From the NCBI GenBank assembly GCA_964580575.1, contig CAZOLJ010000004.1, positions 30,354-94,353 of the forward strand: a stretch of DNA of 64,000 nucleotides. The letters run 5' to 3'. The position numbers and the translations under genes were made by a program. The stretch comes from an uncultured Desulfobacteraceae bacterium (GTDB lineage: Bacteria > Desulfobacterota > DSM-4660 > Desulfatiglandales > HGW-15). Every line of letters starts with the position of its first letter. Position 1 is the stretch's first letter. Positions 2,556 through 18,758 of this stretch are shown here, one piece after another. The notes under the pieces are model-generated. The model saw nothing but the letters and a program-made list of their open reading frames with translations. It was not told the origin of the DNA and ran no database searches.

Positions 2556-2560
2556 CGCTT

Positions 2561-3649
2561 CTACCCTTTCCCTAGTCTTTCGTAGATCACTCTCTTGAGC
2601 TCTTCGGCTTTCACCGTGGACGTCCCCACCTCTCCCACCACAAGGCCGGCTGCAAAATTCGAGATAAGGGCCGCTGATTTCAGATCCATTCCGGCAGCCA
2701 GGCCCAGGCAGAAGGTGCTGATCACCGTGTCGCCGGCACCTGTCACGTCAAACACTTTCCTTGCCACGGTCGGGATGTGAACGGGTTCTCCTCTCTTCTC
2801 AAAGAGAGTCATCCCGTCCTTGCCCTGGGTGATCAGAACCGATCGGCATTTCAAATAATGGAGGATCCGGTTCCCTGCGGCCACCAGCGTTTCATCGTCA
2901 CCGATCTCGATCCCCGAGAAGGCGCTGGCCTCGTGGTGGTTGGGGGTGATGACATCAATGCCTTTGTAATGCTCGAAATTGTTCTTCTTTGGGTCAACAC
3001 CCAGAACAATGCCGGATTCCGCCACCAGATCTCTCAACCCCTTCATCAGTCGAGGGGAGATCACGCCCTTGGCGTAGTCCGAGACCACGATGGCATGGAG
3101 GTCCTTTTGCATCCTCTTCACGAAATCGAGAAGCCTCTCGACGCTTTCCGCAAGGATCTCTCTTCGGCTTTCTCGGTCAAACCGCACCACCTGCTGGTGT
3201 TGGGCAACAATCCTGGTTTTGATCGTGGTCGGCCTGTCCGGTTCCTGGAAAATTCCTTCGGTGGCCCCCCCCAGGTTCTTGACCATCTTCACCACCTGGC
3301 GGCCCGTGGAATCGTCCCCCACCACTCCGCACAGGATCGCTTCCCCGCCCAGGGAGGAAATGTTGTTTACCACATTTCCCGCGCCCCCCAGCATCTTCGT
3401 CTCCCGCTTCACGTCAACAACCGGAACAGGCGCCTCCGGAGAGATCCTCGAGACATCGCCCCAGATGTATTCATCCATGATGATGTCTCCTATGACAAGG
3501 ACCCTGGTTTTCGGAAACTTCTCAATGCTTCCGGCGAGGGATACGGGATCAAGGTCGAAAGGCATTTCCTTGAGCATCGCGGCCAAATCCTTTTCAGGAA
3601 TCGTTTTGCAGTACCGGGTTACACAGATATTCGGCCGGTAACTTATCAT
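2561..3649 (-). CDS. hldA: D-glycero-beta-D-manno-heptose-7-phosphate kinase (RfaE domain I only, PfkB family)
   Basis: VLVIGDIIMDEYIWGDVSRISPEAPVPVV and the C-terminal PfkB signature DVTGAGDTVIS. No adenylyltransferase half. The true start may be the internal MLKEM (3577). Confidence 0.8.
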   Translation of the reverse strand: MISYRPNICVTRYCKTIPEKDLAAMLKEMPFDLDPVSLAGSIEKFPKTRVLVIGDIIMDEYIWGDVSRISPEAPVPVVDVKRETKMLGGAGNVVNNISSLGGEAILCGVVGDDSTGRQVVKMVKNLGGATEGIFQEPDRPTTIKTRIVAQHQQVVRFDRESRREILAESVERLLDFVKRMQKDLHAIVVSDYAKGVISPRLMKGLRDLVAESGIVLGVDPKKNNFEHYKGIDVITPNHHEASAFSGIEIGDDETLVAAGNRILHYLKCRSVLITQGKDGMTLFEKRGEPVHIPTVARKVFDVTGAGDTVISTFCLGLAAGMDLKSAALISNFAAGLVVGEVGTSTVKAEELKRVIYERLGKG

Positions 3650-3738
3650 TGTGCTCCGGCACCTGTCTATCGCTTTTTCGACGGTCTTTTTGGTTGAATT
3701 CTCGGGCTTTTTTCTGTACAGGTATTCGGCTATGTCTC

Positions 3739-3766
3739 TTGAATCCTGGAAACGTTGTGGTATATT
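3739..3766 (+). promoter_or_regulatory. sigma70-like promoter candidate upstream of DUF374 copy 1
   Basis: TTGAAT (3739-3744), 16-nt spacer, TATATT (3761-3766). About 80 nt upstream of the 3846 start. Confidence 0.3.
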
Positions 3767-3845
3767 GGGTCAGATTATTTCCGGATCAGCAGGCCCCTCT
3801 TCAGGTGAAGCATCGAGGTCATGAAAAGGGTGAGGAGTCCTTGAT

Positions 3846-4523
3846 TTGGCGGTTGTCCAGTCCATACTCAAATACCGTTTGGTTCCTTTGTGTTATTATC
3901 TTTTGCGTCTGTACCTCTCTTTTCTGAGGATCAGGGTTGTCGGTGAAGACGCCGCCCATAAGCATTTTACGAACTACGGCCGCCTGATCGCTGCGGTCTG
4001 GCATCAACGGTTTCTCCCTGCTCTGGCGTATGTCACCAAATTCAGGAACTTCAAACCCATTGTGATGATCAGCCAGAGCAGCGACGGTGAGCTGATTGCT
4101 TCTCTTGCCGAAAAGCTCGGGCTTGTTCCTGTGAGGGGATCCAGCACTCGAGGGGGAAGAGAAGCCTTGATGGCCATTCTGAGAGCCCTTAAGAAGAACC
4201 CTGGCGTCGTCCATATTGTGGATGGGCCCACAGGGCCCAAGGGGGTTGTCAAGCCGGGGCTCATGGCTATGGCTCAGGTCACCGGTGCACCTGTTTTCCC
4301 GGTGATCATATCCGCTGAAAAGGCCTGGGTAATGAAAAGCTGGGATCGATTCCTGGTGCCCAAGCCCTTCAGCACAGTGACCATCCGGTGGGGGGACCCC
4401 TTCCCAGTTCCCAGGGGAACGCGTCCCGAGCAGTTGGAGGTCCTACGAAAAGAAGTGGAAACCCTCCTGCTGAAGGCTCATGCAGAGGCGGACCTGCAAT
4501 CAGGGTGGCCTCAACCCCTCTGA
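3846..4523 (+). CDS. DUF374-type lysophospholipid-acyltransferase-superfamily protein, copy 1
   Basis: 225 aa. Conserved block WHQRFLPALAYV...ISQSSDGELIA...GLVPVRGSSTRGG...VDGPTGPKGVVKPG. The start is TTG in the track, with no in-frame ATG nearby. Confidence 0.8.
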   Translation: MAVVQSILKYRLVPLCYYLLRLYLSFLRIRVVGEDAAHKHFTNYGRLIAAVWHQRFLPALAYVTKFRNFKPIVMISQSSDGELIASLAEKLGLVPVRGSSTRGGREALMAILRALKKNPGVVHIVDGPTGPKGVVKPGLMAMAQVTGAPVFPVIISAEKAWVMKSWDRFLVPKPFSTVTIRWGDPFPVPRGTRPEQLEVLRKEVETLLLKAHAEADLQSGWPQPL

Positions 4524-4592
4524 CATGTACGTTCGGTTTCGGCTGAAGGCCTGCGTTGGCAGTATTCATTCAGTAAGGAAAGGGGATTGGGT

Positions 4593-4856
4593 ATGGCTCA
4601 AATGACACAAGATGAGGTCTTTGTAAAAGTGAGAAAGGTCGTGGCGGAGGTGTTCAAGGTGGAGGAGAGCCGGATCTCTTTGCAGACAAAGTTCATAGAT
4701 GATCTCAAAGCTGAGTCTCTGGATATCATTACCTTGCTCATGGAGTTTGAGGAAGCCTTTGACAAGAGGATCCCGGACGAGGATGCGGAAAAGCTGCTCA
4801 GCGTGCAAGATGCCGTGAAATACATCATGGCCATGGAAGACGACGCCAAGGCTTAG
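4593..4856 (+). CDS. discrete acyl carrier protein
   Basis: ~87 aa. FIDDLKAESLDIITLLMEFEEAF is a canonical ACP helix II with the Ser in (D/E)SLD. ATG at 4593 is preceded by AGGAAAGGGG; the track start 4587 is TTG. Confidence 0.9.
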   Translation: MAQMTQDEVFVKVRKVVAEVFKVEESRISLQTKFIDDLKAESLDIITLLMEFEEAFDKRIPDEDAEKLLSVQDAVKYIMAMEDDAKA

Positions 4857-4860
4857 GCCC

Positions 4861-6225
4861 ATGAAGAAACGAATCGTCATCACCGGATTGGGAGTCCTCA
4901 CGGCGATCGGGCGGAATCCCGATGAGTTCTGGAAAAGCTGTTTGGAAGCGAAGACCAGAGTCGAACGAATCCCTGACCACTGGCTTTATTACGGGGATTT
5001 CCATTCCCAGATCTGGTCCCCTCTTCCTTCGATCGACTATTCCTCCTATGGGATCGGTCGCATCGAGGAAAAACAACTCGACCCATCGAGTCTCATTGCC
5101 ATTGCCTGCAGTTTTCAAGCCCTGGATTCGGCGGGCTTGGAGTACACCAAGGTGGACCAGAAGCGAAACACCTACTCCCTGCCCTCCGTGGACAAGGAAA
5201 GGGCCGGCGTGTTCATGGGGACAGGGATTGCAGGCCTGGGCACCTTTGCCTCCTGCTACAGCTACCATCTCCTCATGCGCCAAAAGGAAGCCCTTGCCAA
5301 GGCAAGCGCCCAGCTCGGAGACCACCCTGCGGGACAGATCCTCAAGCAGGTCCAGGATCGAATGCATTATCCCAGGCGCTTTAATCCGTTTGCAGTGTCG
5401 ATGACCATGCCCAATGCCTGCTCCGCCAGCATAGGCATCAAGTTCAGCCTCCACGGGAGCAACAACGCCTACTGCGCGGCTTGCGCCTCGGGAACAGTGG
5501 CCATCGGTCACGGGTTCAAGGCCGTGAAATCCGGGGAACTGGATGTCGCTCTCGTGGGCGGCGTGGAGCATCTGAGCGACGAGTATGGCGGCATCTTCGC
5601 AGGCTTTGACGCAGTGAGGGCTCTGGCCTACAACAATGAGGAACCGGACAAGGCGAATCGCCCTTTTGACAGGGACCGTACCGGTTTTCTTTTCAGTGAA
5701 GGAGGAGGGGCGGTCTTTGTCATTGAAACTCTGGAGCACGCCCGGAACCGAGGCGCAAAGATCTATGCCGAGATCGTGGGCTACGGCGAGACATGCGACG
5801 GCTTCAACATCATGATGATGGAAAGCAGCGGCAGCCAGATCACGAGAATGCTCCAACTCGCCTTTGCCGATGCAGGCCTGTCTGCAGAAGAAATCGATTA
5901 CATCAACGCCCATGGAACCGGGACGCGTCTGAATGACGAGACGGAGACCGCGGTGATTGAACAGGTTTTCAGGAAGAACGTCCTCATCAATTCCACCAAA
6001 TCTCTCATCGGTCATACCCTGGGAGCTTCCGGAGCCATAGAGGCGCTGGTCACCGCTCTGAGTATTCATCACAAGACCACCCACGTGTGCCGGAATCTCG
6101 ACCATCCCATGAAGGATCTGAATTTCGTCACCCGGGTGGACTTCTACCCTATCCGCACCGGCCTCTCCCAGTCCTTCGGCTTCGGCGGCCACAACGCCGC
6201 CCTCATCCTCCGTGAGTATCGGTGA
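4861..6225 (+). CDS. discrete beta-ketoacyl-ACP synthase (KAS I/II-like, extended N-terminal region)
   Basis: 454 aa. MKKRIVITGLG start. Cys in YCAACASGTVAIG, His in INAHGTGT, His in IGHTLGASG, end FGFGGHNAALIL. 4 nt after the ACP stop. Confidence 0.9.
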   Translation: MKKRIVITGLGVLTAIGRNPDEFWKSCLEAKTRVERIPDHWLYYGDFHSQIWSPLPSIDYSSYGIGRIEEKQLDPSSLIAIACSFQALDSAGLEYTKVDQKRNTYSLPSVDKERAGVFMGTGIAGLGTFASCYSYHLLMRQKEALAKASAQLGDHPAGQILKQVQDRMHYPRRFNPFAVSMTMPNACSASIGIKFSLHGSNNAYCAACASGTVAIGHGFKAVKSGELDVALVGGVEHLSDEYGGIFAGFDAVRALAYNNEEPDKANRPFDRDRTGFLFSEGGGAVFVIETLEHARNRGAKIYAEIVGYGETCDGFNIMMMESSGSQITRMLQLAFADAGLSAEEIDYINAHGTGTRLNDETETAVIEQVFRKNVLINSTKSLIGHTLGASGAIEALVTALSIHHKTTHVCRNLDHPMKDLNFVTRVDFYPIRTGLSQSFGFGGHNAALILREYR

Positions 6226-6355
6226 CCCAGAAGATCGATCGGGGCTCCTTGTCCGGGTGTTTATGATGGGGCCACGGGGTCGGAACGATGATCAGAACCC
6301 GATGAGGGTGGTACGGAGCAGGCCGTGTGGCAGAAAACATGAGGCTCCGTGGTCT

Positions 6356-6384
6356 TTGACACATAGGGTCACTCTCGATATACT
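6356..6384 (+). promoter_or_regulatory. near-consensus sigma70 promoter candidate upstream of DUF374 copy 2 / megasynthase
   Basis: TTGACA (6356-6361), 17-nt spacer, TATACT (6379-6384). About 50 nt upstream of 6436. Confidence 0.45.
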
Positions 6385-6435
6385 CTCGGCCAGTGAGGAC
6401 TGATTCTTATGCACTGACTGCGAGGAATTGTCTCT

Positions 6436-7119
6436 TTGGGTATTTGGCAAGCCCGTTACCTTCTCCTCTATCGGTTGATACCGGTGTGTTACTATTTGCT
6501 TCGCTTGTACCTCTCTCTTCTGAGGATCAGGGTGGCTGGCGAAGAAATCGCACTCGGGTGTCTGGCAGATTATGGACGGGTGATCGTGGCCGTGTGGCAT
6601 CAACGTTTTCTACCGGCTCTGGCCTACGTCACCAAATTCAGGAATTTCGAGCCCATTGTCATGATCAGCCAGAGCAAAGATGGAGAGCTGGCCGCGAGGC
6701 TCGCGCAACGTCTAGGACTTTTACCGGTGAGAGGGTCCAGCACGAGAGGTGGAGAGACGGCTCTGGCAGCCATTTTGAAGGCACTGAAAAAAAATCCGGC
6801 CGTCATTCATATCGTGGATGGTCCCACAGGGCCAAAGGGTGTCGTGAAACCCGGGCTCATCAGTATGGCCCAGATATCGGGTGCGGTCATCCTGCCGGTC
6901 TTTGTATCCGCTGACAGAGCCTGGATTATGGGAAGCTGGGACCGATTCCTGGTCCCCAAACCTTTCAGCAAGGTGACCATCGAATGGGGTCCACCCCTCG
7001 TCGTGCCCCAGGAACTGGATCCGGCCCAAAATGAGGAATTCAGGGAGGAGATCGAGCAGAGACTTTCTGAGGGCTATGCCCAGGCCGATCTGAGTTCAGG
7101 CTGGGACCATCCCCTTTAA
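6436..7119 (+). CDS. DUF374-type lysophospholipid-acyltransferase-superfamily protein, copy 2
   Basis: 227 aa, colinear with copy 1. About two-thirds identical by eye, e.g. WHQRFLPALAYVTKFRNF(K/E)PIVMISQS and HIVDGPTGPKGVVKPGL. TTG start in the track. Confidence 0.8.
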   Translation: MGIWQARYLLLYRLIPVCYYLLRLYLSLLRIRVAGEEIALGCLADYGRVIVAVWHQRFLPALAYVTKFRNFEPIVMISQSKDGELAARLAQRLGLLPVRGSSTRGGETALAAILKALKKNPAVIHIVDGPTGPKGVVKPGLISMAQISGAVILPVFVSADRAWIMGSWDRFLVPKPFSKVTIEWGPPLVVPQELDPAQNEEFREEIEQRLSEGYAQADLSSGWDHPL

Positions 7120-7163
7120 TCTTGAGAAAAACCTCACTACAGAAGAGGGATTCAACTTCCACT

Positions 7164-10100
7164 ATGCCCAGAACGCAATCAAACTCTGTTCTCGCTTTCC
7201 TGTGGAGACCCAATGAGATCACTCCTGCTGTGGTCGACACGGCCCGCCGGACCTCCACTGTGGCCCTATTCGACATCAGTAAGGATCGCACGGGAAACCT
7301 CGCAAAGCCCCTCAAGGATGCAGGGGCAAAAGATGTGAAGATCTCCGCCGAACACTTCATGGAGCCGGCAATCGAGAGATTTCTCCAGGACTCCAATGTG
7401 TCCACCCTTTGGGTGGAGTTTCATCCGGCCTTTGGACCCTGTCCAGCCGAGGCTTTTCTTGAGCGAGTGAAGGAGTTGTCGGCCCGGATCACCTGCATTC
7501 CGATCAGCGGGGATCCGGATTTTCTCAGCCTCGCCCTTCAGTCGAAGTGGCATGCCCAGGCCGTTGCCATCAAGGGCTCCGAAGCGTCAGGCTTTGTTGG
7601 CAATGAAAGCGCAGGCGTCCTCTACTCCACCTTGAGGGAAATGGCGGGCCAGGGGGCTCAAAAGTCTGGTTTGATCCTCTGGGGCGGCGTGGCCACGCCC
7701 GAGGCGGCCGCAGCCTTTTTGTGCACCGGCGCAAGGGGTATCGTGTTCGAGAGCCTCCACTGGCAGACAGACTTGGTGTCCGCAAACCCGAACCTGAAGG
7801 AGCGCCTCTCCAGAGTGCGTCCCGAACACAGCGCCGTCGTGGGGACGACCCTCGGGGTCTCCTGCCGCTTCTTTGATAAGGGCAACTCCGTGGCCGTCAA
7901 GGAATTGAAGCAATACGCAGACACTCTGCTCGACCGCGAGATTGCGGATCAGGACCGCCGCGCCTTTGCCCGTAAGGTCGAGGAGAGAGTCGTGCCGGCG
8001 CTCGAAAGGGAGCTGGGCCGCCAGGAACTTGTTTTTCTGGGACCTGAGGCGGCCTTCGCAGAGGCATTCGCCGGACGGTTCGGCCGCTCTACCCGTCAGG
8101 CCATAGAGGGCTTCGCCAGAGAAGTGTCGAGCCTCTGCCGGCAGGCCCCACCCAAACGGGACGCTCTCGTGGAAAACTCTGCTGCCAAGTCCCTGGGGAC
8201 CCGTTACCCTTTCATTCAGGGAGCCATGACTTGGATCAGCGACATCCCGGAGTTCGCCCTGGCTGTGTCCGAAGCAGGGGGTCTGCCTACCCTGGCCCTC
8301 GGTGTGAAAACCCGCGTGGACATCGAGCAGGACCTGGCTCGGCTCAAGGAAGTCATGGGCGAACACCCTTACGCAGTCAACTTTGTCGCCCTTCCGGAAA
8401 ACCCTCGTCTGGAAGAACAGCTCGCCTGGATCGATCAAACCCGCCCGCCCTTTGCGGTCATTGCAGCCGGGGATTCCTCCTATGCAGCGCGTCTTCAGGA
8501 GAGGGGAATCCAGGCAATCTACGTTGCTTCGAGCGAGGGTCTTCTCCGCATGGCATTCGAGGCCGGCGTGCGTTTTGTCGTCCTGGAAGGGAACGAGTCC
8601 GGCGGGCACGTGGGGGAGCATTCCACCCTGACCCTGGCGCAGATGGCCCTGGAGCTCAGGCGCAGAGAGCCCGAACTCTTCCGCGATCGGCACCTGGTGC
8701 TCGCAGGCGGCATCTTCAACCGGGAGAGCGTTCTCAGGGCTTTCATGCTGGGTGCCGATGCTGTGCAGATGGGCACGGCGTACCTGGCCACCCGGGAGAT
8801 TGTCTCTACACGCGCACTGAGCCCCTTGTATCAGCGCCTGATCCTAAACTCACGGCCCGGCATGACCGCGGTTTCGGGCGAAAGCGTCGGTCTCAGGGTT
8901 CGGTCTCTCAAAACCCCTAAAGTGGAGGCGATCCGCACCCTGGAGAGAGAATGGGCGTCGGGCCGGCACGACGAGAGCTCTTTTCGGATGCGCCTGGAGG
9001 CTCTGGGTGCAAACAGCCTGCTTGTCGCTGCGAGGGGGATCGATCATCCCCGCGGCCGAGTCATGGACGAAGAAAGCTGCCTGCGGGAAGGACAGTTCAT
9101 GAGCGGTTCCATATCCGGCGCACTCCATCGTGTGCTCACTGTCTCCGAGTTTCACCGCGACCTGGTTGAAGGGCCTCTGGAGCTCACTCTCCCGGAATGG
9201 GAGGAGAGGCCCGCGCCGGCGCCTGCTGCCCGGTCGAGGACAAGGGAAGACCGCGAGCGATTGGCTGTCACCGGTATGGCCCTGGTCAATTCCCTGGGCA
9301 ACAGCCCGAGGGAGATCTTGGAAGCCTCGGTTGCCATGAGGAGCGGAATCGCCACAGTGCCTCCTTCCCGGTGGGACCACAGCCTGTACTACGATCCCGA
9401 TCCCCGCGCCAGAGGCAAGACCTACTGCAAGGTTGGCGCTTTCCAGAACCTCAGCGTCTCGCGCAAGGAGTTGGGCATTGCGCCTCAGGATTTCCGCTCC
9501 ATGGCCGATTCCACCCGATTGACCCTCTGGCTCGCCGAAGAGGCCATCAAGCAATCAGGCCTGCTGGAGTCGGGCATTCCCAGGGAGCGCATCGGGGTGC
9601 TCATTTCCCAGAACTCGGGAGAGGGTGCGGCCACGATCACGGATCTGGTCTTTGATGTGAATTACCACGACATCATCCGCTCCTTGAGGGAGATCATCCC
9701 CACGACCCCGGAACTGGAAAAGGCCATCAGGGAAAGAATCCAAGCAGGCCGCCTCACCGTGGACGACACCACCTTGCTCGGCCGTCTCAATTGCGCGGCC
9801 GGGGGCTTTGTGTGCAACCGGTACGGGTTAAGGGGCCCGAGCTACGCGGTCTCCGCTGCGTGCGCCACCAGCCTGGTGGCCCTCTTCAACGCGCTCCAGA
9901 TGATCCGAAACGACATCCTCGACGCAGCCGTTGTGGGAGGCGGAGAGGAGTTCCTCCACCCCTCCCATTACCTCGAATTCTCCGCGCTCAAGGCCCTGGC
10001 CGGGCTCTCGGGCGTTGAAGGGCCTGCCCAGGAGAGCAGCCGGCCCTTTGATGCGCAGCGCGACGGCATGGTCCTCGGCGAAGGAGGAGGCATGATCGTT

Positions 10101-13100
10101 GTGGAGAGGGAGTCGGTCGCGAAAAAGCGCGGTGCCCCTATTCACGCCTACATCACCGGGATAGGAGCGAGCAACAATGATCGGGGCATGGTGGAGTCCC
10201 TGGCCGAGACCCAGTTGATTGCCCTTCGGGGCTCCTTCCGGGATACGGGTTACGGTCCCGAGCAGGTGGACATGGTGGAATGCCATGCCACGAGCACGGT
10301 TCAGGGTGACGTGGAGGAGGTCAAGGCCCTCAAGTCCCTGTTCCCATCTTCTAAGCGGACAGTGCTCACCTCTTTCAAGTCCCAGATCGGCCACACCCTC
10401 GGCGCCTCCGGCGTGAACAGCCTCATCAGAGGGGTGTGCGCCATGCAGGCGGGACTCTTCCCGCCCACCCTCAACTACAGGACGCGGGATCCCCAGGTCG
10501 ATCTTGAGGCAGGGGGCTTTCATGTTCTTCTTCAGCCCGAGGAGTGGCCGCAACCCCCGGACCGGCCCAGGCGTTTGGAGGTTAACGCCTTTGGTTTCGG
10601 CGGCGCCAATTATGTGGTCCAGCTGGAGGAGTGCCGGGAGGCTTCCGGCCGGGTCATGATCTCAGCGCCCCTCACAGAGAGACTCGAACCCCCGAAGCCT
10701 TCTGGTCAGGCCGCTCGGCCGTCCATCCAGGGCGTTTCGTTTTTCCGCGCCCAGGTGGCAGGCCGGTCCTATCGCTTAGGGGTGGTGGCTTCCGGTGAAA
10801 AAGAAGCCCGGTCCAGAGTGGAAGCCCTGCCCCCTGCTGAAAACGGGGGTATCTTCTCGGACAAGTCCCTACGCACCATGGCCCGCCAGGGCATCTTCGC
10901 TGCACCGGCCGACGATCCGCAAAAACCCCTGGCCTTCATTTTCACCGGCCAGGGGTCCCAGTATGCAGGCATGAGCAAAGAGCTTTACGACACCTTCCCG
11001 GAAATCCGGAGGTGGATGGACAAGATTGCGGCTGTGGCTGAATTCGATCTCCTGGACCTCCTTTTCCATGCCTCGGTGGAAGACCTTCAGAAGACACGAT
11101 GGCAGCAGCCCGCCCTCTACACCATGGAGTACGCCATGGTGCAGTACTTGATCGCCATGGGCGCAAAACCACTGGCCATGGCCGGACACAGCCTTGGAGA
11201 ACTCGTGGCCATGAGCACCGCCGGGATCTTCACCTATGACGACGGCTTCCGCATCGTGAACAAGCGGGCCCAGTGCATGGACAAGGCAAGCGGGCTCCGG
11301 GGCGACCCAGGCACCATGATCGCGGCGGACGCGCCCATGGACTACCTGGAACAGAAAGTGGCCGGCTGGGAAAACGTGTACTTCACCAACTACAACTCGC
11401 CCCACCAGGTGGTCTTGGGCGGTGACACCCAGCCCTTGTTGGCTCTTCTGCAAGAGATCAAAAGTGAGGGTTACCGGGCCACCCAGCTCAAGGTGAGCAT
11501 GGCCTTTCACTCGCCCATCATGAAGGTGATCCATGACGAGATGGCTGCCTTTGTGTCGGACATTGCCTTTCACCCGGCCCGGATTCCGGTGATCTCCAAC
11601 ACCACCATGAAGCCTTACCCGAATGATCCGGACCAGATGCGCCGGATCCTCATGGCCCACCTCGAATCCCCGGTGCACTGGATGCAGAACGTGAGGACCC
11701 TCTGGGAGGATTTCAGCATCAGAACCTTTGTGGAGATCGGCCCGGCAGACACACTCTGCAGCCTTGTGGGACAAACCCTGGACAAGCCTCTATGCGTCCC
11801 TACCTGCATGCCCGAGGCAGAAGCCCAAACCTATCGGTCAGGGGTGGCCCAACTCCACGCTCTGGGCCATCTGGAACAGGAGGAGATCCCCCTGACGGAA
11901 AAGACGGACCAGTTGGCCGTCCCATCCCCTGCGCCTGCGATCACGGTCCGTTCCACTTCCGAAGACCGGCTGGCTGCCATTGTGCAGCGTGAGATAAACG
12001 CTTTTGTCCTGAAGTCCTTCGGAGAGTATATCAAACCGCTTGTCGTGGCCGCGATCCGCCGGGAACTGGATCCAAGCTTCACGTTGGAAAGTCTGGACCG
12101 GAGCCTTGGGACTTTGCCTGTGGCCCCGCCCCTGCCCCAGGCCAAACCCTTGGCAAAGGCCGAGGCCCCTGCGGCCCTGCCGAGCCGGGAGGCGGAGGCC
12201 AAGGGGCCGAAAGAAGCGGTGGATTATGTGGAGCAAATGATCCGGATCATCATGAATGCCACCGGGTATGAACGGGACGAGATCGAGCCTGACATGGACA
12301 TCCGGCAGGACCTTGCCATCCGTTCCAGCCGACTGCCCGTGATCATGGACGAGGTCGAGCGACGGTTCAACATCCCCGTCAATGTCGAGGATTTCGTGGG
12401 ATTGCGCACGGTGCGGGAGATCGCGAACTGCATCGAAAAGCTGGCAGGCGGACCCGGCAAAGAAGCCCCGGCCGCACAACCGTTCCAGCAAGCCCCTCCT
12501 GCCGCCGCCCCCAAGAACTCGGCGGCCCCATCCGCCGAGGAGGAGGCACGTCCAATTGAATCGATCAGGCGAATGGTCTTAGAAGAAGTCGCGCTCCCTC
12601 ATGGCGCCGTGCACCCGCTCACGCCGGCGCCGGGACAGGAGGTGGCGGTGCTCAGGATGTCTCCCGGCTCCACCCTGGCTGCTGACGTGTCCCGCCACCT
12701 GGAGGGAAAATGGAAAGTCAAGTCGCTGTTCTTGGACTATTCGGGTCAGGGGGACGGCAGCGCCTTTGATCTGCGCGCTTCCAAGGGCGCACAAAAGGCG
12801 GAGCAGCGGCTCAAAGAAGCTCGTTCCCTGGCAGGGCTTGTCCTGGTGCTGGAAGGCGAGTTGCGCTCCGTTCTGTCTGGTGCAGAAGACATTGCAGCTT
12901 TCCTCTCCGGGTTCTTCCGCTGTCTGAAGGCCGTGATGAATTCAAAGAGCAAACCCTTTTGCCTGGTTCTGCTCCGGGGGGTTCAACCCGAAACCCCCGG
13001 AGCCGTGACGGCGGAAGGCATCCTGGGCATGTTCCTGGCTGCGGCCCATGAGTACCCGTCGGTGCTGTTTCGAAGTGTTTCTCTGGACGCCAACACGGAT

Positions 13101-15077
13101 TTCCCGAGCGCCATGGACCGCGCCCTGGATACCGGGAACCCGATCATCCAGTGGACCTACCACGGCCAGGAGGCCTTCTCCATCAAGGCCTCTCATGCTC
13201 CTCTGTCCTTGACCGGCAGGTCCGGGCTTGAACTGGGGCCAGAGGACGTGGTGGTGATCTCAGGCGGCGCCAAAGGGGTCACCTGGCACATTGCCCGGGC
13301 CCTGGCGGCCTTCAAACCCCGGATCGTGCTGCTGGGGCGGACCGAACTGAACCCTGCAGCGTCCTACAGCGCCCTCCGCAACGCCGAAGCTCCTGCTGAA
13401 GGCGCCTTACGTCGCCTATTCAAAAAGAAAGAGCCTGTCCCAAAGGCCGACCAACCTGAGAGTCAGACCTCGAGCGCCCTTGCAGGTTTGGACATTGCGC
13501 GCAACGTGTCCCGGCTCTCCGCTCTTGGGATCAAGGTCTCCTACCTTTCCTGCGACGTGGCAGATCCCCGCAAGGTGGCACAGACGCTCGACCAGGTGGT
13601 GAAACAGTATGGCAGGATTGACGGGATCATTCACGGGGCCGGTATCATCCGGGACAGCTTCCTGGAGTTCATGACGCCCGAGGATTTCACCAAGGTCATG
13701 GAGGTCAAGCTCCTGGGGGCATGGAACCTTTACCGCGCCTCCAAGGACCGCGGCCTGCGGTTTTTCGCAGCCCTCTCCTCGCTTGTGGCGATCCAGGGCA
13801 ATGTCGGCCAGGTCAACTACTGCAGCGCAAACCGATCGCTTTCCGCCATGCTGCGATCGTGGAGCGTCTCCCACAAGGGCCTGGTGTCAAAAGCCTTCAT
13901 GCTGCCGCCCATCGAGGGCACCGGCATGGCTGATGACCCGGAGGTCAAGGCTCTCATGAAGCTCAAAGGGTTGGAGTCCGCCTTTGTGCACGCAGACGAG
14001 TTCGCCCAGATTTTCTGCCGCGAGCTGTTCCTGGGGCCGGCCCAGCAGCCTTGGGTGATCCTGGCCCGCACCTTTCCGTCCGTCAAGAAGACCATGGTGG
14101 AAGCGAAGGAATCGAGCGAGGACAAGGCGAGCCCATGTGCCGGGGGAGTCCGTTTGGAGCAGAAGGACCTCCCTATGATCGGGACCGTGGAAACCCTGGA
14201 CCTCAAGGCCGGCGAACTGGTGGCCAAACGGACCTTTTCGCGGGCTTACGACCTCTGGATCGAAGATCACAAGCCTTTCAAGCTCCTGAAGCACCCTTTA
14301 GTTTCAGGGATCATGGCCGTCGAGACCTTTCTGGAGGCAGCCCATCTGCTCTATCCGCATCTGAATGTGCTAGGTGTGCGGAGGCTGAACTTCAAGGACA
14401 TTCTGGAGTGTCCTCCGGACACAGGGCGGGAGGCCCGTATCCTCTGTCGGAGAGAGGAGGATCCCAGTCACGATGTCCGCTGTCACGTCGAGCTCTCCAG
14501 TGCAGGCCTCTCTCCTTCGGGTCGCCTTTTGGACACCTGGTCCACGAACTATCTTGGACAGGTCATTCTCGGGCCCCGGATCACCCCTCTTTCCCCCTTA
14601 CCTGAGTTCGCCATAAATGCGAAGGACCTGGATACGCGTCCCATGGACGCCCATGAGATCCAGGAGAGCTATGAAAATCGCACCGGCCTTCGTGGACGCT
14701 ACCGCGTCCTTGAGAAGATCCACGGCACAGGGCCAGGAATCATGAAAGGAGCCATGGTTTACAAGGACCAGGAGGACATGGCCGGTTTGGGCCCTGCCCG
14801 TTACCACTACTCGCCCTATCTGCTGGAAGCCCTGATGCACCTTTTCGCGTTCTACGCTGCCCTCCGGCAGGAGAGTGGATCCTCGGAGGTGCTTCCCGCG
14901 GGTATGGAGGAAATGCGTTTCACCCGGCCGGCCCGGAATGGAGAGCGCTTCACCCTCGAAGCCAGGCTCCGCTCCCGTGACGATCAGGGCTTCACGTGGG
15001 ACGCCCGTGCCTTGGACGAGAGCAACACCCCCATCATGCAGGTCCTTTCCATGCGCATGAATCGGTTCAGTCAGTGA
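7164..15077 (+). CDS. type-I FAS/PKS-like megasynthase: pseudo-ER, ER (NMO/PfaD/FabK-type), KS, AT, ACP, KR, DH
   Basis: Single ORF; first ATG at 7164, track TTG at 7122. Domains (nt): degenerate NMO-like TIM barrel ~7239-8141 (AIKGSEASGFVG). ER ~8184-9191 (YPFIQGAMTWISD, VLEGNESGGHVG, GADAVQMGTAYL). KS ~9258-10631 (SAACATS with Cys codon 9861-9863, ECHATS, GHTLGASG). AT ~10923-11831 (FIFTGQGSQYAGM, GHSLGE with Ser 11190-11192, MAFHSP). ACP ~12213-12446 (DLAIRSSRL). KR ~12564-14051 (ISGGAKGVT, Tyr in VNYCSAN 13818-13820). DH ~14154-15074 (LKHPLVSGIMAVE, His 14292-14294). Confidence 0.95.
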   Translation: MPRTQSNSVLAFLWRPNEITPAVVDTARRTSTVALFDISKDRTGNLAKPLKDAGAKDVKISAEHFMEPAIERFLQDSNVSTLWVEFHPAFGPCPAEAFLERVKELSARITCIPISGDPDFLSLALQSKWHAQAVAIKGSEASGFVGNESAGVLYSTLREMAGQGAQKSGLILWGGVATPEAAAAFLCTGARGIVFESLHWQTDLVSANPNLKERLSRVRPEHSAVVGTTLGVSCRFFDKGNSVAVKELKQYADTLLDREIADQDRRAFARKVEERVVPALERELGRQELVFLGPEAAFAEAFAGRFGRSTRQAIEGFAREVSSLCRQAPPKRDALVENSAAKSLGTRYPFIQGAMTWISDIPEFALAVSEAGGLPTLALGVKTRVDIEQDLARLKEVMGEHPYAVNFVALPENPRLEEQLAWIDQTRPPFAVIAAGDSSYAARLQERGIQAIYVASSEGLLRMAFEAGVRFVVLEGNESGGHVGEHSTLTLAQMALELRRREPELFRDRHLVLAGGIFNRESVLRAFMLGADAVQMGTAYLATREIVSTRALSPLYQRLILNSRPGMTAVSGESVGLRVRSLKTPKVEAIRTLEREWASGRHDESSFRMRLEALGANSLLVAARGIDHPRGRVMDEESCLREGQFMSGSISGALHRVLTVSEFHRDLVEGPLELTLPEWEERPAPAPAARSRTREDRERLAVTGMALVNSLGNSPREILEASVAMRSGIATVPPSRWDHSLYYDPDPRARGKTYCKVGAFQNLSVSRKELGIAPQDFRSMADSTRLTLWLAEEAIKQSGLLESGIPRERIGVLISQNSGEGAATITDLVFDVNYHDIIRSLREIIPTTPELEKAIRERIQAGRLTVDDTTLLGRLNCAAGGFVCNRYGLRGPSYAVSAACATSLVALFNALQMIRNDILDAAVVGGGEEFLHPSHYLEFSALKALAGLSGVEGPAQESSRPFDAQRDGMVLGEGGGMIVVERESVAKKRGAPIHAYITGIGASNNDRGMVESLAETQLIALRGSFRDTGYGPEQVDMVECHATSTVQGDVEEVKALKSLFPSSKRTVLTSFKSQIGHTLGASGVNSLIRGVCAMQAGLFPPTLNYRTRDPQVDLEAGGFHVLLQPEEWPQPPDRPRRLEVNAFGFGGANYVVQLEECREASGRVMISAPLTERLEPPKPSGQAARPSIQGVSFFRAQVAGRSYRLGVVASGEKEARSRVEALPPAENGGIFSDKSLRTMARQGIFAAPADDPQKPLAFIFTGQGSQYAGMSKELYDTFPEIRRWMDKIAAVAEFDLLDLLFHASVEDLQKTRWQQPALYTMEYAMVQYLIAMGAKPLAMAGHSLGELVAMSTAGIFTYDDGFRIVNKRAQCMDKASGLRGDPGTMIAADAPMDYLEQKVAGWENVYFTNYNSPHQVVLGGDTQPLLALLQEIKSEGYRATQLKVSMAFHSPIMKVIHDEMAAFVSDIAFHPARIPVISNTTMKPYPNDPDQMRRILMAHLESPVHWMQNVRTLWEDFSIRTFVEIGPADTLCSLVGQTLDKPLCVPTCMPEAEAQTYRSGVAQLHALGHLEQEEIPLTEKTDQLAVPSPAPAITVRSTSEDRLAAIVQREINAFVLKSFGEYIKPLVVAAIRRELDPSFTLESLDRSLGTLPVAPPLPQAKPLAKAEAPAALPSREAEAKGPKEAVDYVEQMIRIIMNATGYERDEIEPDMDIRQDLAIRSSRLPVIMDEVERRFNIPVNVEDFVGLRTVREIANCIEKLAGGPGKEAPAAQPFQQAPPAAAPKNSAAPSAEEEARPIESIRRMVLEEVALPHGAVHPLTPAPGQEVAVLRMSPGSTLAADVSRHLEGKWKVKSLFLDYSGQGDGSAFDLRASKGAQKAEQRLKEARSLAGLVLVLEGELRSVLSGAEDIAAFLSGFFRCLKAVMNSKSKPFCLVLLRGVQPETPGAVTAEGILGMFLAAAHEYPSVLFRSVSLDANTDFPSAMDRALDTGNPIIQWTYHGQEAFSIKASHAPLSLTGRSGLELGPEDVVVISGGAKGVTWHIARALAAFKPRIVLLGRTELNPAASYSALRNAEAPAEGALRRLFKKKEPVPKADQPESQTSSALAGLDIARNVSRLSALGIKVSYLSCDVADPRKVAQTLDQVVKQYGRIDGIIHGAGIIRDSFLEFMTPEDFTKVMEVKLLGAWNLYRASKDRGLRFFAALSSLVAIQGNVGQVNYCSANRSLSAMLRSWSVSHKGLVSKAFMLPPIEGTGMADDPEVKALMKLKGLESAFVHADEFAQIFCRELFLGPAQQPWVILARTFPSVKKTMVEAKESSEDKASPCAGGVRLEQKDLPMIGTVETLDLKAGELVAKRTFSRAYDLWIEDHKPFKLLKHPLVSGIMAVETFLEAAHLLYPHLNVLGVRRLNFKDILECPPDTGREARILCRREEDPSHDVRCHVELSSAGLSPSGRLLDTWSTNYLGQVILGPRITPLSPLPEFAINAKDLDTRPMDAHEIQESYENRTGLRGRYRVLEKIHGTGPGIMKGAMVYKDQEDMAGLGPARYHYSPYLLEALMHLFAFYAALRQESGSSEVLPAGMEEMRFTRPARNGERFTLEARLRSRDDQGFTWDARALDESNTPIMQVLSMRMNRFSQ

Positions 15078-15136
15078 GATGATGGAAACCCATGAGAGTT
15101 GATACAAACGAAATGAGCCCTTTTGCAATAGAACGC

Positions 15137-15284
15137 GCCCCCTCCCCTCTCCCCTCTCCCCCGGCTTGGGGTCTATGTCAGAATGTCATTTCGAGGCGAA
15201 AGCCGAGAAATCCTGGTTCTTCACAAAATCTGCCCCTCCCCGATTGCGACACAGCCTCTTGGGTGAGAAGGCGGGGTGAGGAGG
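15137..15284. repeat. GC-rich REP-like composite (C-rich arm, small hairpin, G-rich arm)
   Basis: gccccctcccctctcccctctccccc (15137-15162) and gggtgagaaggcggggtgaggagg (15261-15284) flank the hairpin atttcGAggcGAAAgccGAgaaat (15188-15211). This is the sequence type that yields spurious ...SPLPSPP... peptides. Confidence 0.5.
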
Positions 15285-15295
15285 CTATACACACC

Positions 15296-15877
15296 TTGCA
15301 GCCTCTCGGGTTCCGGGGCTCTGTATTGTTTGCATCTGCTCCACCCGTGCATGGATCAGGGCTGCACCTGGCCCTTGGCCTGCTCGGGGCTCTGGCGCAG
15401 CTTGATTCCCGCTGGAGCGGGACCGGAAACGAGATGACCCTTCACAAAAGCGCTCTGGGAGCTCCATTTCTTCTTGTAAGGGACAGGGAAGGACCCTCCG
15501 TGTCCTTCAGCCACGGCAAGGGGCGGCTCTGGGCGGCCATGTCCGGCAAGGGAAATGTCGGCATTGACGTTGCCTACCCGGAGGAATTTGCGGGGACCTA
15601 TCCTCTTCACCGAGCGTTCAGTGCCGAAGAACTGGAGTGTGCTGAAGCCCTTTGTCCTGACGACAAAGCCCGGGGCGCAGCCCTAATGTGGGCCGCAAAG
15701 GAGGCGTCGGTCAAGGCGACCGGGGCCGGCTTCAACTTCTTTGATCCCCTGGAAGTGCGAGTGGGGGCTCCCCTTGTCAGGGAACAGGGGATCCTCTTCG
15801 AGGTGTTGGCGGACCGACCCATTTCCATCTGGGTAAGAACAGAGGGCAGGGGCTGGCTTTCCGTGGCATTGGCTTAG
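15296..15877 (+). CDS. 4'-phosphopantetheinyl transferase (short form)
   Basis: Motifs GAPFLLV, SFSHGKGRLWAAMS, VGIDVAYPEE and WAAKEASVKATGAGF. The track ORF starts at 15092 but its first ~68 codons are the REP-like repeat. TTG 15296 follows GAGGAGG; GTG 15347 is also possible. Confidence 0.75.
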   Translation: MQPLGFRGSVLFASAPPVHGSGLHLALGLLGALAQLDSRWSGTGNEMTLHKSALGAPFLLVRDREGPSVSFSHGKGRLWAAMSGKGNVGIDVAYPEEFAGTYPLHRAFSAEELECAEALCPDDKARGAALMWAAKEASVKATGAGFNFFDPLEVRVGAPLVREQGILFEVLADRPISIWVRTEGRGWLSVALA

Positions 15878-16013
15878 TCCATCGAGTCCTGAATTCGATG
15901 ACGAATTTATTCCCTCAGGACTGAGGCTCCACCCGGCGATCGGGTGGCTTCGGAGAGCTCGCTCGAAGGGGGCACTGCTGGCTTGCTCAGATTATCGGAA
16001 CTTCCAGAAGACT

Positions 16014-16113
16014 TCCTCCCCCTCGACGTGGGAGGTAAGGTGGGGGTGGACAAGGCTGCATGAAATGCCATCGCTTTACCCCCCTCCCCTGTCCCTCCCA
16101 CCAGGGGAGGGAA
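16014..16113. repeat. GC-rich REP-like hairpins
   Basis: cctccc(N9)gggagg at 16015-16035 and tccctccc-acca(g)-gggaggga at 16092-16112. Same C/G-tract style as 15137-15284. Confidence 0.5.
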
Positions 16114-16213
16114 ATTTCTTGTAGAAGCCTTCTTGCACACCGGATCAGTCGAACGTATCCGGGTCCTCCACCAGAGGCGCAGAGGATATTGAACGCTAAC
16201 GACTGGGGATAAG

Positions 16214-17107
16214 ATGATAGACGAGATCCTTTACAGGCTCATCCGTTTGACCATCCGCATGATGTCCCATATTTACTACCCCCTCGCGCAGCATATCGGA
16301 AGGGGATGGGGGACGATCGCTTATCTCATACCCATGAGCAGGAAAAAAGTGGCTCTGGAGAACATCAGGCAAAGCTTTCCTGCCCTCACGAAAAGGGAAG
16401 CAAGAAGGCTCCTCAGAAGGGTGTACCTGCACTGCGGCCAGATGTTCTTCGAAATCCCTCACATCTTTCGCATGACCCACAACACCCTTGACCGCTACGT
16501 GACCTTGGACGGAGAGGAAAATGTGGTCAACGCCTTGAGCAGGAACAAAGGTGTGTTTTTTCTTACCGCCCACTTCGGGAATTGGGAGTTCCTGTGCGCC
16601 GCAGGTTCCCTCATGACCGGGAACCTAGCCGTCATAGCCAGACCCGTTGATTTCAAGCCTTTTGATCGCGTGATCGCCGAGATCCGCACCCTTTTCGGCA
16701 CCGAGGTGATTCTCAAGCAAAAGGCCCTGAGGAGGGTTCGGGGTGCGCTGAGAGAAAACAAGCTCATCGGCATTCTGCTGGATCAGAATGTGGACTGGTA
16801 TGAAGGCATTTACGTTCCCTTCTTCGGCCGGTGGGCCTGCACAAACAAAGGACTGGCAATACTCGCGGTGATGACCGGAACGCCCGTGGTGCCCGCTTTC
16901 CCGGTCAGGCAGAAAGACGGACGGTACCGTATCATCTTTGAAAAGGAAGTGGAACTCCGGCAAACGGGAGACAGGACGAGGGACATCGAGGAGAACACCG
17001 AACTATTCACAAACATCATCGAGAAGTATGTGAGAAAATACCCTGACCACTGGTTCTGGTTTCACAAGAGGTGGAAGACGAAAAACTACTGTCCCCTACC
17101 CCGATAG
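16214..17107 (+). CDS. LpxL/HtrB/MsbB-family (lipid A secondary) acyltransferase
   Basis: 297 aa. FLTAHFGNWEF is the HX4(D/E) acyltransferase motif; ends DHWFWFHKRWK, typical of the family. ATG start. Confidence 0.8.
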   Translation: MIDEILYRLIRLTIRMMSHIYYPLAQHIGRGWGTIAYLIPMSRKKVALENIRQSFPALTKREARRLLRRVYLHCGQMFFEIPHIFRMTHNTLDRYVTLDGEENVVNALSRNKGVFFLTAHFGNWEFLCAAGSLMTGNLAVIARPVDFKPFDRVIAEIRTLFGTEVILKQKALRRVRGALRENKLIGILLDQNVDWYEGIYVPFFGRWACTNKGLAILAVMTGTPVVPAFPVRQKDGRYRIIFEKEVELRQTGDRTRDIEENTELFTNIIEKYVRKYPDHWFWFHKRWKTKNYCPLPR

Positions 17108-17177
17108 CTGCACCTCTGCCCGCGCAACCCCCTATTGCCCCGACCGCCGTCCCCAGTCCGGGCTGTAATTCGCTTTG

Positions 17178-17206
17178 TTGACAAGCCGCCCAATTGCCAT
17201 CAGAAT
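17178..17206 (+). promoter_or_regulatory. sigma70-like promoter candidate for glpK
   Basis: TTGACA (17178-17183), 17 nt, CAGAAT (17201-17206). Confidence 0.35.
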
Positions 17207-17240: not shown

Positions 17241-18758
17241 ATGGAAAAATTCATCGGTGCAGTGGATCAGGGCACAACGAGTACTCGGTTCATCCTTTTT
17301 AATCACAGCGGCGAGATCGTCGGAGCAGAGCAAAAGGAGCACAGGCAGATCTTCCCAAAATCCGGGTGGGTGGAGCATGACCCAATGGAGATCTGGAGCA
17401 ACACACAGCACGTCATTCGCGCCGCCCTAGCGCGAGCGGGAATCCAAGGTTTGGACCTGGCTGCCATCGGTGTGACGAACCAGCGTGAGACCACGGTGGT
17501 GTGGGACAAGAAAACGGGGCAACCTTACTTCAACGCCATTGTGTGGCAGTGCACGCGCACCCACGAGATTTGCCGGGACTTGATCACCCATTATGGGCAG
17601 GAAGCCTTTGAAGCCAAGACCGGCTTGCCGGTTGCAACCTATTTTTCAGGACCCAAGCTTAGGTGGATTCTGGACAGCGTTCCTGATGCCGCGCGTGCCG
17701 CCCGGAAAGGCGACGCGCTTTTTGGAACGGTGGACACTTGGCTCATCTGGTGGCTCACCGGAGGGCCCCACGGCGGAGTGCATGTCACGGATGTCACCAA
17801 TGCGAGCCGCACCATGCTCATGGACCTGGATGCCCTTGAATGGGAGGAGAGCATTCTCCGGGCTCTGGATATCCCCAGGCCCCTGCTGCCCAGGATCGTT
17901 CCTTCCATCGACAGAAGTGTTTGGGGATATACCTCAAAGGACGGCCCTCTGGGACACCTTGTGCCTGTCTGTGCTGCTCTGGGGGATCAGCAGGCGGCCC
18001 TGGTGGGGCAAACGTGCTTTCAGAAGGGAGAGGCCAAGAACACCTATGGGACAGGGTGTTTTCTCCTCATGAACACCGGTTCCGTGCGCGTCCGATCCAG
18101 GCACGGATTGATCACGACGGTGGGGTACCGAATCGATTTGCAAGCCCCCGTGTATTGTCTGGAAGGCTCTGTGGCCGTGGCAGGGGCACTCGTTCAGTGG
18201 CTGCGCGACAACCTGGGGATCATCGCAAAGGTGCCCGAGGTCGAGGACCTCGCCAGGACTGTAGACGACAACGGAGGGATCTACTTTGTTCCGGCCTTCT
18301 CAGGGCTCTTTGCTCCCTATTGGCGTGCGGATGCAAGAGGCGTGATCGCCGGACTCACGCGCTTTGTGAATAAGGGGCACATGGCGCGTGCCGTGCTGGA
18401 AGCGAGCGCCTTTCAAACCAAAGACATCGTTGAAAGCATGAACCAGGACTCAGGCGTTGCCTTGCGAAGCCTCAAGGTGGATGGGGGCATGGTAACCAAT
18501 GAACTTCTCATGCAGTTCCAGGCGGACCTGTTGAACGTGCCCGTCATTCGCCCCAAGATCACGGAGACGACAGCGCTCGGGGCGGCTTATGCCGCAGGAC
18601 TCGCTGTAGGGTTCTGGCCGGATCTTGAAAGTCTTCGCCGGAACTGGACCATGGATAAAACGTGGCTTCCGGCCATGCCGCAACAAGAGAGGGGGAAAAG
18701 ATACGGCGAATGGAAAAAGGCCGTTGAAAGAACATTCAGCTGGGTTGACGGGAAGTGA
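17241..18758 (+). CDS. glpK: glycerol kinase
   Basis: 505 aa. [46 protein letters not shown]. Confidence 0.95.

Follow-up and report, generated by a model that had tools for sequence, protein, structure and literature searches.

Exchangeable gene modules that may couple LpxJ-family acyltransferases to private acyl-chain synthesis in an uncultured Desulfobacteraceae bacterium

In Rhizobium and Legionella, the AcpXL-FabZXL-FabF2XL-FabF1XL-LpxXL system places a very-long-chain fatty acid onto lipid A. Mycobacterial Mas and Pks2 are iterative reducing type I synthases without a thioesterase, the product of which is moved from the acyl carrier protein (ACP) to a lipid or sugar hydroxyl by a discrete acyltransferase, PapA. 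The locus described here, seven co-directional open reading frames (ORFs) on the forward strand at positions 3846-17107 of a 64-kb stretch of DNA (the window) from an uncultured Desulfobacteraceae bacterium, invites comparison with both, as well as with two further kinds of systems. One is represented by ArsA, a type I fatty acid synthase (FAS) with the domain order enoyl reductase (ER), ketosynthase (KS), malonyl-acyltransferase (MAT), ACP and ketoreductase (KR) and with a separate 4′-phosphopantetheinyl transferase (PPTase) (Table S1, PMC3098273); its ACP-bound C22-C26 chains go directly to ArsB and ArsC (PMC6274091, PMC4824345). The other is the DUF374 or LpxJ family of lipid A 3′-secondary (late) acyltransferases, characterized in Helicobacter, Campylobacter, Wolinella, and Rickettsia. 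All characterized DUF374 proteins act on lipid A, and in LpxJ of Rickettsia typhi, which lacks an HX4D motif, activity depends on residues W60, H61, D86, D132, W172, and D173 (PMC6148475).

The seven genes, which Pfam and NCBIfam annotation assigned in agreement with the original prediction, encode a DUF374 protein (DUF374a), a free-standing ACP, a discrete FabF-like KS, a second DUF374 protein (DUF374b), a type I megasynthase, a PPTase, and an LpxL-family acyltransferase (Table 1). Rather than the one self-contained factory that had been proposed, they make up separable units, as indicated by varying gene partners, distinct DUF374 clades and clean insertions or deletions (indels). Module 1 (3846-6225) comprises DUF374a, the ACP and the FabF-like KS, whereas module 2 (6436-15877) is a conserved unit of three genes, those for DUF374b, the megasynthase and the PPTase. 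Our reading, to which we assign a probability of roughly 0.5, is that two modules, each pairing an LpxJ-family acyltransferase with a private carrier-bound source of acyl chains, have been juxtaposed and stand beside an lpxL gene for lipid A acylation.

The distribution of the megasynthase bears directly on the integrity of module 2. In a scan of one representative genome per species, in which full-length relatives were counted, 284 megasynthase loci were found, nearly all in metagenome-assembled genomes (MAGs) labelled as delta-proteobacterial or Desulfobacterota. The labels include Desulfobacterales, Syntrophobacterales, Desulfomonilaceae, Desulfobaccales, Desulfuromonadales/Geobacter, Desulfobulbales, and Syntrophales, along with one Nitrospiraceae, and full-length homologs in the protein database are 48-88% identical to the window protein. 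Gene neighborhoods were examined at 80 of the 284 loci. The sole universally linked gene is that for the PPTase, which immediately follows the megasynthase gene in 53 of these 80. A DUF374 gene is found directly upstream only in the clade of 63-88% identity, where it is present at all 11 loci with upstream sequence and is separated from the megasynthase gene by a constant gap of ~44 nt. No free ACP, KS, or lpxL gene was detected near the unit in the 11 contexts, which are otherwise unrelated. Because the linkage holds across such contexts, DUF374b, megasynthase, and PPTase constitute a genuine three-gene unit, and because no free ACP is encoded nearby, the ACP domain of the synthase itself is the sole carrier encoded in its vicinity.

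In other clades, the megasynthase neighbors genes for a GNAT-like acyltransferase, an NAD_binding_4 thioester reductase or an AONS-type aminotransferase, which are candidates for other release or tailoring enzymes. The types of context include the thioester reductase together with B12-radical SAM and MatE genes; the reductase, the aminotransferase and the GNAT-like acyltransferase upstream with ABC and radical SAM genes downstream; and the GNAT-like gene only. Several genomes contain two megasynthase paralogs, each in a different context (L010/L024, L023/L078, and L049/L073).

Two of the contexts outside the DUF374-linked clade deserve separate mention. In Desulfomonile-like and related MAGs (L013, L017, L018, L045, L047, L051, L057, L058, L062, L063, L071, and L080), there is a recurrent arrangement of a divergent thioester reductase gene followed by megasynthase, PPTase, B12-radical SAM (DUF4070), and MatE genes, which suggests reductive release with subsequent tailoring and export. 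At three loci in Desulfuromonadales/Geobacter MAGs (L026, L030, and L075) and at L008, L021, L025, and L060, the megasynthase-PPTase pair is flanked by genes for an NAD_binding_4 reductase, an AONS/Spt-like aminotransferase and a GNAT-like protein of ~380 aa, with an ABC transporter and a B12-radical SAM (DUF4070) gene also close by. The reductase, aminotransferase and GNAT-like trio is reminiscent of the bacterial ceramide genes Spt, bCerS, and CerR (PMC11087976) and, by analogy, a megasynthase of this type might supply a sphingolipid-like pathway.

Structural variation at the locus itself provides a second line of evidence for the modular arrangement. With the discrete KS as the seed of a metagenome scan, we recovered 42 loci of close relatives, in most of which the KS is 81-93% identical; they occupy the same hldA/DUF4416/yicC...glpK locus. 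The arrangement of the window recurs in L087, L111, and L112. DUF374a is missing from L110 and from contig P0002, in which window positions 3803-4572 are absent. In L088, L089, L091, L092, and L094, the DUF374a, ACP and KS genes are directly followed by glpK; here, window positions 6219-17202 are absent, with the junction located inside the last two KS codons and a 5-nt overlap. The order in L093 is ACP-KS-DUF374b-lpxL-glpK, window positions 7122-16208 with the megasynthase and PPTase genes being absent; in the phylogenetic tree, its DUF374 protein is of the b type, on a long branch, which implies a deletion of the two genes there. Further loci, such as L103 and L115, carry different genes after the KS. 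Thus, comparison of the window with L089, L093, and L110 uncovers three independent clean indels of whole genes or modules at one locus. The flanks of the variants lacking the megasynthase are ~87-90% identical in nucleotide sequence to those in the window, nearly as close as the flanks of megasynthase-bearing variants. All of the ~14 locus variants that are informative on both sides retain at least one DUF374 gene next to the ACP and KS genes, and none among them has lost both. The glpK gene directly follows the KS gene in several of these relatives, and its proximity lends no support to a connection with glycerolipids. In L115 (positions 1240-4020) and in L122, the variable slot between the KS gene and glpK has an alternative occupant, a 926-aa fusion of an ADP-forming acetyl-CoA synthetase-like protein with a GNAT domain.

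The two DUF374 proteins are 69% identical to each other and score 78.3 (DUF374a) and 78.0 bits (DUF374b) against PF04028, compared to a Pfam gathering score of 26.8. Both resemble LpxJ in size (~225 aa, with an N-terminal helix), and the motifs WH, SxDGE, VDGPxGP, and SWD are all present in DUF374a. The start of this first gene had been placed at position 3739, which is in another frame that soon meets a stop codon; the actual start is the TTG codon at 3846, preceded by GGAG ~9 nt upstream. Residues W54, H55, D82, D128, W168, and D169 of DUF374b correspond, by motif and matching spacing (+2 offset) rather than through an aligned characterized sequence, to the essential residues of R. typhi LpxJ and are invariant in 29 homologs. 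An AlphaFold2 model of DUF374b (pLDDT 85) resembles the LPLAT/LpxM/PatA-like fold: in Foldseek comparisons, the best matches were to LpxM of Acinetobacter (5knk, 5kn7), followed by PatA, PlsC, and GPAT, with E-values of ~1e-6 and TM-scores of ~0.5. A sequence search against the PDB retrieved no solved DUF374 structure. In the DUF374 tree, genes of the 'a' clade are always followed by an ACP gene and those of the 'b' clade, which takes in the distant three-gene units, always by a megasynthase gene. The separate clades and different downstream partners rule out a recent tandem duplication of DUF374b as the origin of DUF374a. The initial idea of lipid A as an acceptor is strengthened by the equivalence of this family with the LpxJ family of lipid A 3′-secondary acyltransferases (PMC6148475).

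The megasynthase possesses the domains of a complete, fully reducing elongation cycle, namely, ER, KS, acyltransferase (AT), ACP, KR, and dehydratase (DH). All catalytic motifs are intact, with the exception of a degenerate first ER, and the polypeptide stops directly after the DH. The ATG at 7164, the start given in the original prediction, reproduces the family consensus N-terminus MP.....P.LAF; the residue numbers in Table 1 are counted from a TTG at 7122, and subtraction of 14 yields the count from the ATG. With respect to release, the Pfam search detected no thioesterase, reductase, or condensation domain in any of the seven proteins. Two further elements of the initial description hold: the synthase is a PfaD::PfaA-like fusion with a PfaD-type ER at its N-terminal side (PF03060, TIGR03151, GGH motif), and PfaC-type parts are lacking, as no ORF in the window other than the discrete KS and the megasynthase matches KS or megasynthase queries. 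The same kind of query search across the 64 kb found no additional KS, DUF374, or LpxL gene. The score of the megasynthase against the PfaA model TIGR02813 is 442.8 bits, compared to a cut-off of 1010.1.

At its N-terminus, the megasynthase carries, over ~336 residues, a degenerate duplicate of its own ER (BLASTP E-value of 9e-6; hhalign probability of 93% and E-value of 3e-7 over 164 columns), although this domain alone has no match in Pfam. Because it is strongly conserved throughout the family, with many invariant columns, the degenerate ER is probably functional in some way; it shows no obvious catalytic role, and could play a structural or docking one. The PPTase contains the motifs VGIDV and WAAKEASVK of the Sfp type, with a divergent or inserted N-terminal portion of ~60 aa, and no solved PPTase structure was found in the PDB sequence search. 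Relative to L106, the PPTase ORF in the window contains ~130 extra nt near its 5′ end (15099-15278), reflecting either an N-terminal insertion (261 versus ~221 aa) or a true start located farther downstream.

In module 1, the free ACP exceeds the NCBIfam cut-off for TIGR00517 (79.5 versus 70.45 bits), carries the attachment serine in an ESLD motif (residue 44 counted from the TTG at 4587), and has the ACP of T. thermophilus as its best match in the PDB. The discrete KS falls below the cut-offs of both fabF models (361 versus 494 bits for the equivalog and 358 versus 387 for the second model) and contains an insertion of ~35 aa, at residues ~137-171, relative to FabF structures. Its Cys-His-His triad is complete, and hence the protein is not a chain-length factor (CLF). 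Nor is it a copy of the KS domain of the megasynthase, given the identity of 26% between the two and the fact that its nearest structures are those of FabF.

The last of the seven genes may link the locus to lipopolysaccharide (LPS) biosynthesis. LpxL contains the HX4E motif (His120...Glu125), with a score below the NCBIfam equivalog cut-off (181 versus 248). Its nearest relatives outside the immediate group (P0257, P0273, and P0271, with 75%, 65%, and 64% identity, respectively) are encoded within waaA...lpxK-lpxL-GT9-HAD-GT9 clusters, that is, among canonical genes for lipid A and the LPS core. Because of this setting of its relatives, the window gene, as their ortholog or a recent paralog, is a genuine lipid A lpxL. 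The neighbors had been named correctly in the original prediction, with hldA, for heptose in the LPS core, upstream and glpK downstream; hldA is divergently oriented from module 1 and keeps its position in the relatives. A promoter-like site within the 210 nt that precede DUF374b fits the module boundaries, as does a terminator-like hairpin after the PPTase gene, and the modules are probably transcribed separately.

These observations suggest the following scheme. In module 2, the Sfp-type PPTase would convert the single ACP domain of the megasynthase to the holo form, the malonyl-specific AT would load extender units, and the KS, KR, DH, and FabK/PfaD-type ER would run iterative, fully reducing cycles. 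The resulting chain is expected to be saturated, because KR, DH, and ER are complete while there is neither a FabA-type DH nor a CLF, and would probably be long. Since a thioesterase is absent, the chain would stay on the ACP until membrane-anchored DUF374b frees it through O-acyl transfer onto a lipid of the membrane; the likeliest acceptor is lipid A, at the hydroxyl of one of its primary 3-hydroxyacyl chains (secondary or 'late' acylation). Module 1 would operate in type II style, with the KS extending a chain on the dedicated ACP with the help of borrowed housekeeping reductive enzymes, DUF374a transferring this chain, and LpxL adding the other secondary chain.

The direct transfer from ACP to DUF374, the acceptor, and the length and saturation of the chain are points that we infer from the sequences, and they call for different degrees of confidence. 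A direct hand-off is favored by the strict DUF374b-megasynthase linkage in contexts without a free ACP, by the candidate release or tailoring enzymes next to the synthases of other clades, and by the precedent of ArsA, which passes on its ACP-bound chains in this manner; we thus consider it fairly likely that DUF374b releases the synthase product. Lipid A would be the likeliest acceptor because all DUF374 proteins characterized to date act on it, because hldA and lpxL flank the locus, and because the adjacency of DUF374b and lpxL survives in L093, but on balance we see the chances of this acceptor as even. More tentative still, and with the odds somewhat against it, is the complete scenario, under which a type I megasynthase passes an unusual saturated chain, probably a very long one, directly from its own ACP to an LpxJ-family enzyme, and gain and loss of the corresponding cassette render lipid A acylation polymorphic within natural Desulfobacterota populations.

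Several considerations weigh against this scheme. Outside the immediate relatives of the window, the three-gene unit is not located beside LPS genes, so the connection to lipid A rests mainly on family membership, and DUF374 is a large family with few characterized members. LpxL looks like an ordinary housekeeping enzyme, the adjacency of which may be incidental. Matches to the promoter and terminator consensus are no commoner in the actual sequence than in shuffled sequence, and the length of the chain cannot be read from the sequence.

Three other explanations have to be considered. Under the first, the chemistry is the same and only the acceptor differs, being a lysophospholipid, glycerolipid, aminolipid, or another membrane lipid, and what results is a 'secondary lipid' in either the inner or the outer membrane. 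DUF374 is part of the LPLAT superfamily, with structural matches to PlsC, PatA, and GPAT about equal to those to LpxM; the three-gene unit occurs in non-LPS contexts in L081-L084; and the reductase, AONS, and GNAT partners in the wider family suggest products other than lipid A. We nevertheless regard a different acceptor as rather unlikely, considering the activity of all characterized DUF374 proteins (PMC6148475), the LPS-related character of the local hldA and lpxL genes together with the DUF374b-lpxL adjacency in L093, and the fact that proximity to glpK is not kept as a functional link.

The second explanation invokes coincidence: DUF374a, DUF374b, and LpxL would be ordinary late acyltransferases using acyl-ACP from type II FAS (FAS II), the ACP-KS pair a divergent acpP-fabF, and the megasynthase product unrelated and released by an enzyme encoded elsewhere. 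That the modules vary independently, that the ACP passes generic AcpP cut-offs and the relatives of LpxL are of the housekeeping type, and that a promoter-like site and a terminator-like hairpin separate the units would all be compatible with such a view. It appears quite improbable, however, in the face of the 11 out of 11 loci at which DUF374b and the megasynthase are linked, in unrelated contexts and with constant spacing, and of a b clade that is defined by this linkage and conserves no other release enzyme. In addition, the discrete KS is below both fabF cut-offs and carries an insertion, and no variant without both DUF374 genes was observed. The third possibility, that the megasynthase is the primary (type I) FAS of the organism, has next to no credence and is ruled out by the presence/absence variants and the paralogs, even though all activities of a fully reducing cycle are present and Shulse and Allen speculated about such a role for a different Desulfobacterota synthase, that of Type S from Desulfobacterium autotrophicum HRM2 (PMC3098273): close relatives with highly similar flanks lack the gene, some genomes have two paralogs in different contexts, no free 3-hydroxyacyl-ACP would be supplied to LpxA and LpxD, which need it, and the HRM2 synthase has another architecture.

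The coordinates of the features discussed above are compiled in Table 1. From DUF374a through lpxL, the intergenic gaps measure 63-69, 4, 210, 44, 14, and 336 nt. The G+C content of the megasynthase gene is 0.60-0.63, compared to 0.53-0.57 in the flanks. In a search for repeats, no long ones, direct or inverted, were seen to flank the modules, the only similarities being the DUF374a/b paralogy and short matches at chance level, and no RNA element in the window matched Rfam at gathering thresholds.

Table 1 Features of the locus and its surroundings in the window
Feature	Coordinates	Strand	Remarks
HldA-type D-glycero-beta-D-manno-heptose-7-phosphate kinase	2561-3649	-	TIGR02198 385 bits vs cut-off 345; LPS core heptose
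DUF374a, LpxJ-family (LPLAT superfamily) acyltransferase	3846-4523	+	PF04028
Free-standing AcpP-like ACP	4593-4856	+	PF00550, TIGR00517
Discrete FabF-like elongating KS	4861-6225	+	Cys208/His351/His385
Promoter-like site	6356-6384	+	TTGACA-17-TATACT (11/12); consensus match only
DUF374b, LpxJ-family acyltransferase, b-type	6436-7119	+	PF04028
Megasynthase	7164-15077	+	Degenerate ER, ER, KS, malonyl-AT, ACP, KR, DH
Megasynthase degenerate ER duplicate (FabK/PfaD-type TIM-barrel)	7164-8171	+	GGH replaced by SGF
Megasynthase ER, NMO/FabK/PfaD type	8193-9071	+	EGNESGGHVG; PF03060 E 2e-27; TIGR03151 FabK E 7e-42
Megasynthase KS	9255-10631	+	Cys914, His1055, His1091
Megasynthase AT, malonyl-type motifs	10929-11807	+	GHSLG Ser1357, Arg1382, MAFHS; PF00698 E 2e-47; TIGR00128 FabD E 4e-58
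Megasynthase single ACP	12219-12446	+	PF00550; Ser1735 in DLAIRSS, invariant in family
Megasynthase KR, structural and catalytic subdomains	12549-14021	+	PF08659 E 1e-32; Lys2196, Ser2219, Tyr2233, Asn2237
Megasynthase PKS-type DH (PKS, polyketide synthase)	14184-15077	+	PF14765, PF21089; His2383...Pro2392, Glu2569xxxHis2573
Sfp-type PPTase	15092-15877	+	PF01648; start uncertain
Nested-hairpin element	15879-15926		Directly 3′ of PPTase stop codon
Terminator-like hairpin	16092-16112	+	8-bp stem, 6 GC pairs; PPTase-lpxL gap; consensus match only
LpxL-family lipid A secondary acyltransferase	16214-17107	+	PF03279 172 bits
glpK	17241-18758	+	Own promoter-like site 17178-17206

The nested-hairpin element of ~48-53 nt (GAGTCCTGA...TCAGGACT, with an inner ATTCG-ATGA-CGAAT) occurs only once in the window. 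A copy with 87% identity, in the opposite orientation, fills an enlarged spacer between the ACP and KS genes in L089 (9944-9996) and is also found in L088, L091, and L092; it may be a repetitive extragenic palindromic (REP)-like sequence or the footprint of a rearrangement. Elsewhere, the window is ordinary chromosome, with genes for PolA, RNase Y, ATP synthase, and RNase E/G. Unrelated to the modules, a gene on the reverse strand (24994-28047) encodes a protein of 1017 aa that contains two modules of the acyl-CoA dehydratase activase (BcrAD/BadFG) type, which fits an anaerobic lifestyle.

If the proposed scheme is correct, it would add a third route for supply of special acyl chains to lipid A, beside acyl-ACP from FAS II and the type II branch of the AcpXL kind. 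It would also widen the role of LpxJ/DUF374 proteins from users of generic acyl-ACP to release enzymes of a megasynthase, and would offer a first functional handle on the large, uncharacterized family of PfaD::PfaA-like synthases in anaerobic Desulfobacterota, for which genome-mining tools are expected to give no label beyond 'hglE-KS/PUFA-like'. The clean presence/absence variants at one locus are natural controls for lipidomics and hint at lipid A acylation as a trait that varies among populations of sediments and wetlands. In practice, the consequences would concern the interpretation of biomarkers and the biology of the outer membrane, with basic principles unchanged.

Comparison with described systems places the locus apart from each of them. 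Our literature searches retrieved no paper tying LpxJ/DUF374 to a PKS or FAS and none describing this gene set, and no characterized ortholog was found, in line with the earlier statement that the gene set is not known to have a characterized product. The DUF374 proteins share with LpxJ the Pfam family, the Trp-His, Asp, Asp, and Trp-Asp residues, and an LPLAT-like fold. However, the characterized LpxJ enzymes draw on ordinary C12-C18 acyl-ACP made by FAS II, with no mention of a dedicated carrier or synthase (PMC6148475), whereas here there are two paralogous DUF374 clades, each hard-linked to a private carrier system.

For the megasynthase, the closest counterpart in architecture is ArsA/ArsD of the Type P 'secondary lipid' cluster in Azotobacter vinelandii, which also combines an N-terminal PfaD-like ER with KS-MAT-ACP-KR, a single ACP, and an adjacent PPTase, without a thioesterase. 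The likeness is one of architecture, and the window protein has, in addition, the degenerate second ER-like domain and a C-terminal PKS-type DH. The receivers of the ArsA/ArsD chains are type III PKSs, which make alkylresorcinols and alkylpyrones, whereas the neighbor here is an LpxJ-family protein; none of the seven proteins matches the type III PKS family in Pfam or NCBIfam, and an ars cluster is excluded on this ground. The Pfa and HglE systems share the PfaD-type ER, the PfaA-like KS-MAT-ACP-KR-DH order, and a dedicated Sfp-type PPTase, and the megasynthase is expected to fall under the antiSMASH hglE-KS/PUFA-like rule. In contrast to those systems, there is no PfaC/HglC KS-CLF and no FabA-type DH, the ACP is single rather than tandem, and release would involve neither PfaB nor a reductase. 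A Pfa synthase can be discarded for the same reasons, together with the PfaA score far below the cut-off, and the Type S synthase of D. autotrophicum HRM2 on account of its different architecture, ER-KS-CLF-AT-KS-ACP3-KR (Table S1, PMC3098273).

As for the overall logic, module 1 plus lpxL comes closest to the AcpXL/LpxXL system, with a dedicated ACP and a FabF-type KS beside a late acyltransferase of lipid A. The difference is that the transferase linked to the ACP is of the LpxJ rather than the LpxL family, and that module 2 contains a type I megasynthase; with this transferase, a single discrete KS and no FabZXL, the locus is not an acpXL cluster, and neither a FabZ-type dehydratase nor a second discrete KS is encoded within 3.7-17.2 kb. 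From the Mas/Pks2-PapA systems, it differs in that PapA belongs to a condensation-domain-like superfamily and not to LPLAT, and in acceptors, organisms, and the order of synthase domains. The nearest characterized systems are therefore ArsA/ArsD for the synthase, LpxJ for the transferases, and AcpXL/LpxXL or Mas-PapA5 for the logic; by its sequence, the cluster appears to consist of exchangeable modules that combine these known kinds of components, with LpxJ-family acyltransferases coupled to private chain synthesis.

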